In this document: piece by piece, positions 60,058-63,606 of the stretch
Numbering within the stretch: the stretch's first letter is position 1
How the letters are laid out: every line of letters begins with the position of its first letter
IMG/VR virus record: IMGVR_UViG_2713896905_000004
Coordinates: 1-64,000 of that record
DNA length: 64,000 bases
Direction: 5' to 3' (one strand)
DNA from: a virus
Taxonomy: Duplodnaviria; Heunggongvirae; Uroviricota; Caudoviricetes
Made by a program: the position numbers and the translations under genes
The notes under the pieces: generated by a model
Told to the model about the DNA's origin: nothing
Seen by the model: only the letters and a program-made list of their open reading frames with translations
Database searches by the model: none

Positions 60058-60759
60058 TTATTCTGATTCTCGCTCAAAAAATGAGCTGATAAGGGGAAGC
60101 CAATCCTCTGACACTTCGCGAGGTCGCGGTTTGCCGTGGAAAAAGATTATTCGGCAGTCTTTTGGTAATGCCCCATTCCCCCTGGAGTAACGCGCGCTCG
60201 CATATTTTGAACCAGGTTCCACAACATCGGCCTTGTAACTTACAAACCATCCTGGATACAGATCCTGAAATGCTGGTGTATCATCGCCCATAACCTTTCG
60301 TAAGAACCCCTGGTCACCCCAGCACTCAGTAGTGACACAACGAGAAATCCAACCTTCCGGATCTTGCCAGAATGAACTCCAGATATGCGCTTTAACACTA
60401 TTTGGTATCCACAGGGCACCGCTGCCACGATATTGTGGATGGTAAAAATCCCTAAGCATGGTGAAGCTGGTTGGTGGATGCTCTAGGATTGGGCGTATAT
60501 CACCGGCAATAACCGTGTCCAAATCCAGATAGAACAGATCATCGGTTATATCCGGTCGGAACAACTCGATTTTCGCCCACCAGCCACGGCACTTTTGCCA
60601 CTGGTTGATCAATGGGACAACTTTGACGCCAGGTACATGTAAACGCTTCAGGTCTGTCAGGCAAATAATTTCATAGCCTTTTGGCAGTTGATTAACCAGC
60701 CACTGCACATCGGAAGCGTTATAGTCACCACCAGAGCGAAAAACTAAAGCAATCTTCAT
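60058..60759 (-). CDS. GT-A-like nucleotide-sugar transferase with DxD motif (233 aa)
   Basis: '[19 protein letters not shown]' (DxD) in a Rossmann-like N-terminal half. Confidence 0.55.
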
Positions 60760-61448
60760 GCTGCACCATCACCTTTCACTTTCATCAATGTCAGGTTTCC
60801 GCAAAATACGGCACCAGTGTCGATATACTGCTGATTCCAGAATGTCTTCGGGCTTTTCACCGGAGTGTGACCAAAGATAAAACGATCTGCGCCCGAAATT
60901 TCGCCACCAATATCATCCATCGAATCACTGATACGCTCGCGCGCCCAGACAACGTTGAAAAGCGGCACCTCCTTACCGAATTGGTATTCATTATCCGGAT
61001 AGTCGGCATGGGCTATAACGATAGTTTCTTGCCCCGTGTTCAACTCAATGATATAGGGCAGACGCTTTACCAGCTCCACCAGCGCCCAGGCTAATATTTC
61101 CTGATCAGTGTCCAGCATGAAGAACCATTGTCCGCCATTCATTAGCCAGTTATTCACGTTGCCATCTGGACTTAACGCATCAATCATCAGCCGCTCATGG
61201 TTCCCCATCACTGCCCTGAACCAGGGCATCTGCAATAGTTCCAGACATTCGACATTTTCAGTACCGCGATCGATAAGGTCGCCGACCGATATCAGTAAAT
61301 CCTGCGCCGGGTCAAAATCCACACGATGGAGTTCGGACATCAGTCTGGTGTAGCAACCATGCAGATCACCAACAACCCAGACATTCCTGTATTTGGTACC
61401 GTCGATACGGTGATAAATTGTGGGTGCCATCATGTATTCTTCAGCCAT
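60756..61448 (-). CDS. Ser/Thr protein phosphatase, lambda-PPase/calcineurin-like metallophosphoesterase
   Basis: 'VVGDLHGCY', 'GDLIDRG', 'GNHE' metallophosphatase motifs. Confidence 0.85.
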
Positions 61449-62056
61449 TCTTTAAGAGTCATCTGCGGAATACCTCCCATTTTCCCGCATGAAACAACGT
61501 CAATCTGTTCACGCGCAGACTGGAATAACAAAGGCAGGTGACTTAGATTTTTTGGCGTGCCGCCGGAGTGAACGCGTAGTTCTTGCGTAGCGTCAACGCC
61601 CACCAGAGCTACATGTTTGAATCCGATATGGAAAGCCAGGTTCAGAGCACCATATGCACTATTGCCGCTGGCAATTTCATTCTCATCTTCGCAAAGGCCG
61701 AAATGTGCGGACCAGCGCCACGCCCACCACTCGGGAGAATTCGTATTTTTTGGCTCCATGCCGCGTTCAGCCACACGACGGAAGCACAGAACGCCATCTC
61801 TGACTTCACGTTCTTTAACATCGGGTAGTGCCATGCAATAACAAACACCACGGCGACGGCGGCCACGACCAACGCGCCGCATATTGTCTGGCGATGGATC
61901 AAGTGTGAAAAAATAAGAAGCGCGGTTCAGCCAGTCGATGGCCCCATTGACCGCTATAATCGGCACTCCGCGCGGCGCAACAAAGTTTGCGGCGCTTGGG
62001 CCACTGCCGACGATAATAACGCGATCACTGCCTCTAAATTTATTCTTGGGAAACAT
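61430..62056 (-). CDS. Rossmann-like GxGPS protein, DUF115/GT42 (sialyltransferase-like) fold candidate, paralogue 1
   Basis: '[14 protein letters not shown]...[12 protein letters not shown]' and '[26 protein letters not shown]' resemble the Cst-II/MptE-like pattern. Confidence 0.55.
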
Positions 62057-62616
62057 TGAATTGCACTGCTCCTACTTGCATTCAAAATATGTAAATCTGC
62101 GTGTTTTTTGCGGGTATCCAGGAACTGCTGTTGCCATTTTGAAATAGACACCTGCGTTGGATTCCGTAGTGCTTGAGGGTGCGCGCCATGCCAATGAAGG
62201 CCGTTTTGCAGAGAACAGTCATAGCCGACTAATACCACTACTTCAGCCCCTGATTCAGCAGCCAGACTGATAGCCTGCGCGCCGCTATTTACCCCTTCCG
62301 CCGGTCCACAATATCTCCTGTACTCCAACGAAAATGATTTCGCCGCCGCCAGGTTGGCTGTCACTTTGCGGAATCTCCCTCCCGGTATGGTGGATCCGTA
62401 TTGCTTCCACCATGACAAATCACCGGCGTATAAGGCATAAATGTCATCGAACATCTGCCAGGAATTGTTAACCGCGATGATTGAACAGCCAGTTTTTTCT
62501 ATAGCAGCACAGTCCTCACGAGTGAGTGACGGTCCGCTACCGACACAAAAAACAGTCCTAGTCGCCCTGGGTGGTATGTTCATTCTCAGCTGCAAATTCA
62601 GCCTCCAGGCGAGCAT
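61954..62616 (-). CDS. Rossmann-like GxGPS protein, paralogue 2 (likely start near 62580)
   Basis: 'TVFCVGSGPSLTRED...CSIIAVNNSWQMF' and 'NSGAQAISLAAESGAEVVVLVGYD'; overlaps paralogue 1 by ~100 nt. Confidence 0.5.
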   Translation of the reverse strand: MLAWRLNLQLRMNIPPRATRTVFCVGSGPSLTREDCAAIEKTGCSIIAVNNSWQMFDDIYALYAGDLSWWKQYGSTIPGGRFRKVTANLAAAKSFSLEYRRYCGPAEGVNSGAQAISLAAESGAEVVVLVGYDCSLQNGLHWHGAHPQALRNPTQVSISKWQQQFLDTRKKHADLHILNASRSSAIQCFPRINLEAVIALLSSAVAQAPQTLLRRAECRL

Positions 62617-62779
62617 TCATTTCAGCGATTACAGGGTCCACTACAGCATCTGTTTCCTGTTCATTACGCGGCATGATCGATGCCAGCGATTCATAATTAG
62701 CCTTGGATGACACGACTATTCTCCCGATGTTAATGTGCGCTATATCAAATGGCGCATATGTACTAATTAATTTATTATT

Positions 62780-63358
62780 TTAAGCAGCATACAACCACTT
62801 GTCGCCGTTCAATACATGCTCAATAGCCTCACCCTTTTTAAGGCTTATGTATTCCAGGATGGCGGTTATCGCTTGTTCTGCACCATACGCAAGAACGACG
62901 TAGTAACCTTCCTCTCTAAGCCTGCGCATCCAGGCGATCTGCTCTTTCGTCGGGGCTTTACCATTTGGTTCTTTAAGCTCAATTCGCATGCCGTGATAAA
63001 TACCGCATGCTTTATCGAGACTCATGTCCGGATAACCTTTTTTCTGCCCTTCAGCTTTCATTTTCCCGGCGGTTGCTTTTGAACGTTTCCCTCCGTTAGG
63101 CGTTGCATGCAACAGCTCATAGATGTCAGGGTGCTTGCGTTCGAAGTAATCAAAAATGAAAACCTGCTCGAAGTGCTCGCAATTTCCGTCGCGCAGGTCT
63201 GGGTTCTTTGCCAGTGCTGCAAGTGCCTTCGCATGTGGAGAAACTTCTTTTACCGGCGCAAGCGATAAGAATGGATCCTTTTTGGTTTTTGGCCTGGACC
63301 GCCCCTTATTTCTACGCTCACTAAAAGCCTGAAACTCTTCCTCAGTAAAGCGCAACAT
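62780..63358 (-). CDS. VRR-NUC domain nuclease (PD-(D/E)xK superfamily)
   Basis: 'GYPDMSL...YHGMRIELKEPNGKAPTKEQIAWMRRLREEGYYVVLAYGAEQA' fits the VRR-NUC pattern. Confidence 0.7.
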   Translation of the reverse strand: MLRFTEEEFQAFSERRNKGRSRPKTKKDPFLSLAPVKEVSPHAKALAALAKNPDLRDGNCEHFEQVFIFDYFERKHPDIYELLHATPNGGKRSKATAGKMKAEGQKKGYPDMSLDKACGIYHGMRIELKEPNGKAPTKEQIAWMRRLREEGYYVVLAYGAEQAITAILEYISLKKGEAIEHVLNGDKWLYAA

Positions 63359-63360
63359 AA

Positions 63361-63606
63361 TCAGTCAAATCCTGCCGGTCGCATGCCATATTTACGCTGT
63401 TTTGCGGCCTGCTCTTCCCTGTGCCATTGCGCACACTCAGCGTCACAATAGATGCCTGATTCGATCGGTTCATTGCAGTAACGACACTTCCCTGTAAATA
63501 CCTGGCTCACGACCTGTGCCTGCTTTCTGATGTTATCGATGGCCATGTCTTTGAGAGCTTCTAACTGATTCATGCTCAGCTCTGCATCATCAACACGTTC
63601 TGCCAA
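63361..63606 (-). CDS. small zinc-finger protein (81 aa)
   Basis: 'CRYCNEPIESGIYCDAECAQWH'. Confidence 0.5.
   Translation of the reverse strand: MAERVDDAELSMNQLEALKDMAIDNIRKQAQVVSQVFTGKCRYCNEPIESGIYCDAECAQWHREEQAAKQRKYGMRPAGFD

Follow-up and report, generated by a model that had tools for sequence, protein, structure and literature searches.

What is built, and on what acceptor, by putative sugar transferases whose genes lie in one row with those of a phosphatase, a nuclease and a zinc-finger protein? The question is raised by positions 60058-63606 of a 64,000-nucleotide stretch of viral DNA (IMG/VR record IMGVR_UViG_2713896905_000004, positions 1 to 64,000; Caudoviricetes), which is referred to here, at its full length, as the window. 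A first-pass annotation of the window had proposed that this row serves a nucleic-acid or surface-glycan modification pathway rather than housekeeping functions. The glycan option fits what we found, but the seven genes of the row do not make up one pathway: only pmgO, pmgP and pmgQ are conserved together and, as far as gene content can define it, the functional unit is this trio only, which is smaller than had been proposed. The reading that we favour, tentatively and at a little less than an even chance, is that pmgO/P/Q form a late-expressed cytoplasmic module that builds a glycan on protein, likely a virion protein. As a conserved and fused glycosylation module the trio appears to be undescribed in the literature that we searched, and searches on pmgO/P/Q, on DUF115 in phages and on Maf or GT8 in virions returned no functional study of these genes.

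Identity of the locus

By its sequence, the window is a P1-like phage-plasmid. Megablast of positions 57000-64000 returned Salmonella phage SJ46 (99.1% identity), P7 (98.6%) and P1 (98.5%). The list of open reading frames (ORFs) of the window contains seven at 60058-63606, all on the minus strand and co-oriented as the first-pass annotation had described them, with short overlaps or gaps between them. In the order of transcription, as read from the P1 and P7 records, they are pmgL, pmgM, pmgN, pmgO, pmgP, ppp and pmgQ. The DNA of the row is already known, and the P1 names mean merely "putative morphogenetic function". The three core members of the module are as follows (lengths in amino acids, aa):

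61954-62616, minus strand: pmgO (P7 hdmB), 220 aa; paralogue of PmgP with GT42-like motifs
61430-62056, minus strand: pmgP (P7 hdmC), 208 aa; predicted transferase of the DUF115/MptE-like/Maf/GT42 fold
60058-60759, minus strand: pmgQ (P7 hdmD), 233 aa; GT8-like, predicted retaining GT-A glycosyltransferase

A conserved and fused three-gene module

Hidden Markov models (HMMs) for PmgO, PmgP and PmgQ were run on loci drawn from protein look-ups, from a scan with a single genome for each species and from an annotated phage collection. The three genes were found together in more than 15 independent contexts, among them P1-like phages, HK97-like prophages of Pseudomonas and Zhongshania, a Brevundimonas prophage, a lambdoid prophage of Alloalcanivorax, a contig of Sinomicrobium (Bacteroidota) that is listed among prophages, Citrobacter phage phiNP, E. 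coli phage EP_H11, the Xanthomonas jumbo phage XacN1 and a podovirus-like contig. In most loci the genes of the trio are joined by short start/stop overlaps. The exceptions are a Hafnia prophage, where PmgO occurs with other partners, and one chromosomal locus that has P and Q only. The scan of species-representative genomes was the informative one; with the PmgP alignment as query, the viral contigs found were all P1-like and nearly identical.

Members of the trio also occur as natural fusions of at least five kinds, i.e., O::P (protein P0092), P::Q (P0220 and P0290), Q::P (P0312), Q::P followed by an S-adenosylmethionine (SAM)-methyltransferase (P0271), methyltransferase::P (P0307) and, in ORF373 of XacN1, a TylF-type methyltransferase fused to Q. 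Methyltransferases of the class-I, FkbM and TylF types and a GT-B enzyme recur as additional members near the trio, and a second GT-A enzyme is common to the podovirus-like contig and the Pseudomonas prophage, which are unrelated (BLASTP 5e-30). The gene that follows pmgQ in phiNP, which was considered as a further copy of this extra GT-A enzyme, is unrelated to it. Taken together, the accessory enzymes and the fusions read, at the level of sequence, as a signature of stepwise glycan assembly. It is the recurrent co-occurrence and fusion that place the linkage of pmgO, pmgP and pmgQ beyond chance, since co-orientation alone is ordinary in phages.

In phiNP (OR565852), the PmgO homologue (HMM E 7e-82; locus L106, 5450-6091) falls between Rz and a gene labelled "alpha-2,3-sialyltransferase", where the deposited record has no annotation.

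PmgO and PmgP

The two tandem GSGPS paralogues that had been likened to GT42 sialyltransferase and DUF115 (MptE-like) folds are PmgO and PmgP, and the likeness is borne out. Both carry GSGPS and an NS...G.D segment, the PmgO HMM finds PmgP at 2.6e-8, and a joint alignment of 54 PmgO and PmgP sequences has six invariant columns (N37, D53, W111, S133, G153 and D155). Modelled with AlphaFold2 (AF2) from the joint alignment, PmgP yields a predicted local distance difference test score (pLDDT) of 95, with a Maf glycosyltransferase as its top structural match and thiamine pyrophosphokinases and GT29 sialyltransferases as weaker ones. The solved Maf and MptE structures share the fold predicted for PmgP/PmgO, and by alignment and model the two proteins are paralogues with the Maf/MptE/GT42 (DUF115) fold. 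Profile and sequence searches of Protein Data Bank (PDB) sequences with PmgP gave nothing significant, and against a viral structure library its model matched only unnamed DUF115-like proteins. The PmgP family is of moderate size (555 clusters at E<=1e-3 among 1.84 billion representatives), and PmgP is the member of the module with the highest conservation.

For PmgO, which matches phrog_4603 at 4.4e-74, the invariant positions are GPS, N50, D66, NSG, GYDCS, HWHGxH, N179 and R182. Nine of the 13 sub-threshold matches of its profile to PDB sequences are to Cst-I or Cst-II, collinear at GxGPS and SG...GxD, and both the GxGPS nucleotide-binding motif and the SG...GxD motif of GT42 sialyltransferases are present in PmgO/PmgP. 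The invariant histidines of PmgO (H141 and H143) and of PmgP (H173) are possible counterparts of the catalytic His188 of Cst-II. The Pfam family PF01973 (MptE-like) scores the two proteins of the window at 23.4 and 20.9 bits, below its gathering threshold of 34.6; homologues P0092 and P0258 exceed it (44.6 and 44.1 bits), and many others hold a precomputed PF01973 assignment.

Compared with Maf and with the GT42 enzymes Cst-I and Cst-II, PmgO and PmgP are minimal, single-domain proteins (~180-208 aa) without the flanking domains of Maf, and they come as an obligate-looking paralogous pair. MptE, a 6-hydroxymethylpterin pyrophosphokinase, and the thiamine pyrophosphokinases act alone on small cofactor precursors, whereas PmgP is found fused to glycosyltransferases and to methyltransferases of the sugar-modifying type.

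A relationship to the Kdo transferase WaaZ (Kdo, 3-deoxy-D-manno-octulosonic acid) was also considered. A faint precomputed match to PF27901 (WaaZ_KDO_III) is present on the O::P fusion P0092, but profile comparison (hhalign) with K-12 WaaZ was weak, giving probabilities of 21% for PmgP and 8% for PmgO over a shared G-x-D segment. On this account, Kdo transfer is kept as a lead only.

Two observations concern the boundaries of these genes. As annotated, the start of pmgO overlaps pmgN by 59 nucleotides (nt; 62558-62616), and its homologues, of 176-205 aa, start ~20 residues further in; judging from them, the true start is probably ~10-20 codons downstream of the annotated ATG, e.g., at the ATG at 62583. 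The overlap of pmgO with pmgP, which lies in the -1 frame, is unusually long at 103 nt (61954-62056). A programmed -1 frameshift at A-AAT-TTA (in the pmgO frame), which would fuse PmgO to PmgP, was rejected because the heptamer is not conserved across loci and the overlaps elsewhere are of a few to ~50 nt.

PmgQ

PmgQ had been described as a GT-A-like transferase with a DxD motif, and we can now place it more closely: it is predicted, from its motifs and its model, to be a GT8-type GT-A glycosyltransferase, retaining by family. In an alignment of 33 sequences, D79-L-D81-T, G148-D149(-Q150), S-Y-K and H208-G-x-P-R-P are invariant or nearly so, such that the DxD, the DQ motif and the C-terminal histidine of the HxxGxxKPW type follow one another in the order of GT8. 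The AlphaFold model is confident (pLDDT 94.5), and its predicted GT-A fold is nearest to solved GT8 enzymes. Compared with the GT8 enzymes LgtC, WaaJ, WaaO, glycogenin, GlyE and Gat1, PmgQ is shorter, at 233 aa, and shares 12-16% identity with them; it escapes every Pfam and NCBIfam model at E<=0.1, Glyco_transf_8 included. A search of PDB sequences gave a single weak GT8 match, and profile alignment with E. coli WaaJ (hhalign) brought the three GT8 motifs into register, yet at a probability of only 37%.

Genomic setting of the module

In the HK97-like prophages of Pseudomonas and Zhongshania the trio immediately follows the major capsid gene and precedes the head-tail adaptor genes. It comes after the tail terminator in the Brevundimonas prophage, has lysis genes on one side and terminase genes on the other in four phages, and in XacN1 stands upstream of tail genes and of the genes for three proteins of 1088-1317 aa. 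The trio has, in these genomes, the placement in structural or late operons that is characteristic of a virion glycosylation cassette. In P1, pmgN-pmgQ is silent in the lysogen because it is under a C1 operator. Genes for ribonucleotide reductase adjoin the trio in XacN1 and in Sinomicrobium.

The XacN1 locus (L108, 5300-12618) is a run of genes, ORF375-371, in which ORF375 is PmgO, ORF374 is PmgP and ORF373 is the methyltransferase::Q fusion; the module stands at the head of a series of very large proteins, one of which has a PKD-like domain.

Copies of the trio outside phages are found in several Pseudescherichia-like genomes and in a Serratia genome. In a Pseudescherichia metagenome-assembled genome (L093, 220-13338), the trio is interleaved with a 1166-aa inverse autotransporter that has an IAT_beta domain and seven Big_1 domains. 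Three other Big_1 proteins, one of them with RCC1 repeats, are encoded in the same locus, and similar arrangements occur in four more loci (L094-L097). In Serratia plymuthica (L008), PmgO adjoins two Big_1 proteins.

Proposed function and its alternatives

In the reading that we favour, PmgO and PmgP, two paralogous Maf/GT42-fold transferases and probably a heterodimer, would transfer a residue from a donor with release of a nucleoside monophosphate. A candidate donor in enterobacteria is an ulosonic acid activated by cytidine monophosphate (CMP), such as CMP-Kdo; the idea is drawn from the nucleoside-monophosphate leaving group in this fold, the availability of the donor in K-12 and the faint match to the WaaZ family. 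E. coli K-12 is not known to produce sialic, pseudaminic or legionaminic acid. PmgQ would add an alpha-linked hexose from a uridine diphosphate (UDP)-sugar, and in other phages additional glycosyltransferases and sugar O-methyltransferases may extend or cap the glycan. The module would be soluble and cytoplasmic, repressed by C1 in the lysogen and expressed in lytic growth, with ppp inserted between pmgP and pmgQ in the P1-like phage. Its acceptor is most likely protein, i.e., virion structural proteins in the case of phages and adhesins with immunoglobulin (Ig) domains in the case of the chromosomal copies, and its role would be that of a dispensable surface decoration.

A protein acceptor is favoured because of the place of the module in structural or late operons, because its chromosomal copies lie among adhesin genes, and because the nearest structures of both folds include Maf, Gat1, GlyE and glycogenin, which are cytoplasmic protein glycosyltransferases. 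It is also favoured because XacN1, which carries the trio, has stained virion glycoproteins: its virions contain at least two that are periodate-Schiff-positive, whose identity has not been reported.

Several points weigh against this reading. The authors of the XacN1 study credited other glycosyltransferases for the glycoproteins. No glycosylated virion protein of P1 was reported in the literature searched, and the paper on P1 virion proteomics makes no mention of glycans. In-frame deletions of pmgL, pmgM, pmgN, pmgO, pmgP, ppp and pmgQ each give infectious P1 with normal plating (PMC9024508), so that the function is not demonstrated by any phenotype. The association with adhesin islands may stem from one ancestral island. 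The choice of CMP-Kdo rests on donor availability and on the faint PF27901 match, and the WaaZ comparison is weak. Enzymes of GT8 and GT42 are, moreover, also classic enzymes of the lipooligosaccharide (LOS) or lipopolysaccharide (LPS) core (LgtC, WaaJ and Cst-II), and homology cannot separate these acceptors from protein.

This last point is the basis of an alternative that we regard as unlikely but worth serious attention, in which the trio modifies the LPS/LOS core, or another lipid-linked envelope glycan, at the cytoplasmic face of the inner membrane. During lytic growth the phage would alter or mask its own receptor and so limit superinfection or the loss of progeny on debris. The LPS core is the receptor used by P1, all of the named hosts are diderm bacteria, the GT8 enzymes near PmgQ include WaaO of the E. 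coli core in addition to LgtC and WaaJ, both Cst-I and Cst-II are LOS sialyltransferases, and O-antigens, too, are capped by sugar O-methyltransferases; the PF27901 match on the O::P fusion points the same way, although the similarity to WaaZ is weak. The setting of the trio speaks against this alternative, however. The P1 unit is controlled by C1 and silent in the lysogen, and elsewhere the trio lies inside head, tail or late operons and not, as typical conversion genes do, by attachment sites or immunity genes. The module architecture is constant across hosts whose cores differ widely, a Bacteroidota genome being among them, and the chromosomal copies lie among adhesin genes and not among LPS genes. 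Improbable, in our estimate, is a role for PmgO/PmgP as pyrophosphokinases of the MptE or thiamine-pyrophosphokinase type in a module that makes or alters a soluble metabolite, e.g., an activated precursor that is glycosylated by PmgQ and dephosphorylated by Ppp. The fold by itself is compatible with such a role, MptE-like is the only Pfam family that PmgO and PmgP match, and in P1 one phosphatase is encoded within the unit and another (pap) close to it. Nevertheless, the phosphatase and the trio are not co-conserved, the top structural match is to a Maf glycosyltransferase, PmgO has both nucleotide-binding motifs of Cst-II, and the fusion partners of P are a glycosyltransferase and methyltransferases of the sugar-modifying type.

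Of the acceptors considered, DNA is the least supported, and we think it very improbable that the cluster, with its nuclease and phosphatase, modifies phage DNA or nucleotides (as a glycosylated or hypermodified base) against restriction. DNA-modifying glycosyltransferases of phages are well known, from T4 and from the work of Pyle (2024) as represented in a paper that cites it; the nuclease, two phosphatases and the transferases are adjacent in P1, and in two loci the trio is beside the ribonucleotide reductase genes. Yet no hydroxymethylase or other base-precursor enzyme is present beside the trio in any locus examined, and the nuclease and the zinc-finger protein are not co-conserved with it. 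P1 DNA is, to our knowledge, modified by methylation only. Each of the single deletions from pmgL to pmgQ, that of ppp included, leaves the parental behaviour toward EcoA, EcoB and EcoK unchanged (PMC9024508), which also tells against the nucleic-acid option of the first-pass annotation. Equally hard to credit is the view that there is no pathway at all and that the seven genes are an accidental row of unrelated accessory genes in a mosaic phage genome. It is true of pmgL, pmgM and ppp, which are unlinked to the trio elsewhere, and every gene of the row is individually dispensable; for pmgO, pmgP and pmgQ it is refuted by the number of independent contexts, the short overlaps and the kinds of fusion described above.

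The favoured reading can be stated more broadly, in a form that we consider possible but, taken whole, rather unlikely: P1 and many other phages of diderms would carry an unrecognised protein-glycosylation system, composed of a heterodimeric minimal Maf/GT42-fold pair (possibly using CMP-Kdo) and a GT8 enzyme, that decorates virion proteins, and bacteria would have borrowed it for their Ig-domain adhesins.

Relation to known glycosylation systems

A precedent for glycosylation of virions is found in mycobacteriophages (Freeman et al. 2023, Cell Host Microbe, cited in PMC12619734). As outlined in the citing paper, their cassettes resemble the trio in that they encode cytoplasmic phage glycosyltransferases, adjoin structural genes and are not needed for growth. 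Their targets are capsid and tail-tube subunits, and in two of the prophages described here the trio has the corresponding position, immediately behind the capsid gene. The trio differs from these cassettes, to the extent that they are described there, in its families (a Maf/GT42-fold pair and a GT8 enzyme) and its diderm hosts, and it is known from its genes, the one indirect hint of a virion glycan being the stained bands of XacN1, which have not been tied to the trio.

The glycosyltransferases of bacterial adhesins provide a second parallel. The heptosyltransferases Aah and TibC (for AIDA-I and TibA) and HMW1C (for HMW1) are soluble cytoplasmic enzymes encoded beside the adhesin that they modify before its export, much as genes for inverse-autotransporter and Big_1 adhesins are intermingled with those of the trio in its chromosomal copies; however, the enzyme families are unrelated, and the adhesin link of the trio is positional only. 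The alpha- and beta-glucosyltransferase systems of T4 are, like the trio, phage-encoded, non-essential and expressed in lytic growth, but systems of the T4 type need a hydroxymethylated base and the enzymes for its biosynthesis, which are lacking beside the trio in the loci examined, and the P1 knockouts keep their parental restriction behaviour.

P1 has been in everyday laboratory use for seventy years, and it still has "putative morphogenetic" genes without an assigned function. With the recognition of a fused and widespread module, a list of hypothetical proteins becomes a concrete question, which can be addressed directly and cheaply with the P1 deletion mutants that already exist. If virions are the target, phage virion glycosylation would extend from actinobacteriophages to phages of Gram-negative bacteria, with a bearing on antibody recognition and the design of therapeutic phages, and the trio would stand for a type of Maf-like protein glycosyltransferase that is both new and minimal; were the LPS core the target, it would be a new lytic-phase mechanism of receptor masking. 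With either target, database labels such as "alpha-2,3-sialyltransferase", "norphogenetic protein", "phosphohydrolase" and "head morphogenesis" are misleading.

Neighbouring genes and their control

The remaining genes of the row, and the control sites that divide and border it, are listed here in the order of transcription:

63361-63606, minus strand: pmgL, 81 aa; DksA/TraR-like C4 zinc-finger protein
62780-63358, minus strand: pmgM, 192 aa; VRR-NUC (PD-ExK) nuclease
62714-62779, no strand assigned: intergenic, with the C1 operator Oppp (Op83) in P1; P1 features mapped onto 98.5%-identical DNA
62558-62713, minus strand: pmgN (P7 hdmA), 51-aa acidic protein; an ORF absent from the first-pass annotation
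60756-61448, minus strand: ppp, 230 aa; lambda-type Ser/Thr metallophosphatase, in a variable slot between pmgP and pmgQ
59991-60056, no strand assigned: pair of C1 operator-like sites (P1 OpmgRa/b) at 59991-60007 (plus) and 60040-60056 (minus), from the operator scan and the P1 annotation

The Oppp region parts pmgL-pmgM from pmgN-pmgQ, and pmgN, by the P1 annotation, opens the pmgN-pmgQ transcription unit, which C1 controls. The sigma-70 promoter PpmgN, as annotated in P1, lies just upstream of the Oppp region, within the coding end of pmgM, and pmgL and pmgM are upstream of both promoter and operator. The operator scan of the window did not recover Oppp, the site having more than 3 mismatches to the consensus. 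The OpmgRa/b-like pair, just downstream of pmgQ, marks where the pmgN-pmgQ unit ends and the pmgR-pmgS unit starts.

Ppp, PmgM and PmgL are what the first-pass annotation took them to be. Ppp has the motif set GDxHG, GDxxDRG and GNHE (GDLHG, GDLIDRG and GNHE in its translation), and it matches Pfam Metallophos (E 9e-16; 59.3 bits against a cut-off of 21.5), the NinI-like phrog_246 (5e-113) and NCBIfam PRK11439 (272 bits); the P1 record states that it is 64% identical to the lambda phosphatase (lambda PP). PmgM aligns with the solved VRR-NUC structure 4qbl at E 3.5e-17 ("YPDM...IELK" with "YPDL...IEIK"), scores 21.2 bits with Pfam VRR_NUC, slightly under the cut-off of 23.8, and matches phrog_5702 ("Holliday junction resolvase") at 4.8e-27. 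The zinc-finger protein is PmgL, which has CxxC...CxxC in its translation and a match to phrog_54 at 1.7e-13, and PmgN matches phrog_2350 at 1.2e-37. None of the seven proteins belongs to a defence-system family in PADLOC.

Their link to the trio is another matter. Among the loci examined, pmgL and pmgM are absent from every non-P1 occurrence of pmgO/P/Q, and they are neighbours of the glycan pathway, not members of it. The same probably holds for ppp, whose membership of the module is doubtful: in other phages a methyltransferase or a GT-B enzyme occupies its slot between pmgP and pmgQ. Phage D6, a relative of P1 in which no pmgO/P/Q was found, has a 90%-identical ppp (L113, 6287-6979) among small genes of the lambdoid nin/ea type, and since ppp is kept there in another neighbourhood without the trio, it appears to be an independently mobile gene. 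The grouping of transferases with a nuclease and a phosphatase, upon which the single-pathway proposal had relied, is an accident of P1 gene order.

Outside P1-like phages, pmgN was not seen beside the trio. In a CRISPR interference (CRISPRi) screen (PMC10695390) the genes of the row scored as non-essential, except for pmgN, which scored as essential and which conflicts with the viable pmgN deletion of PMC9024508; targeting at the start of the operon may have effects beyond pmgN itself. None of the proteins of the pmgL-pmgQ row is in the P1 virion proteome (PMC9024508).

Other features of the window

The window contains 13 matches, at <=3 mismatches, to the P1 C1 operator consensus ATTGCTCTAATAAATTT, compared with a mean of 0.35 in shuffled sequence. 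They include sites at 25000-25016, 41169-41185, 57899-57915 and 63664-63680 in addition to the pair at 59991-60007 and 60040-60056, and they are the dispersed C1 regulon typical of P1.

Several stretches differ from one or another of the close relatives. At 57139-57720, downstream of pap, there is a gene of the P7/SJ46 type (P7 upf86.8, phrog_874) in the place of P1 pmgT, which is the reason that P1 covers only 92% of the 57000-64000 query. At 38006-38008 the window lacks the ~8.6-kb Tn1721/IS903/CTX-M-27 insertion of SJ46, and the alignment skips there from 31474 to 40115 of the SJ46 locus. Positions 10283-15979, which include a low-GC patch (35% at 14001-16000), have no match in the SJ46 segment compared; they fall at the tail-fibre/invertible-segment region of SJ46 and are probably a different host-range cassette.

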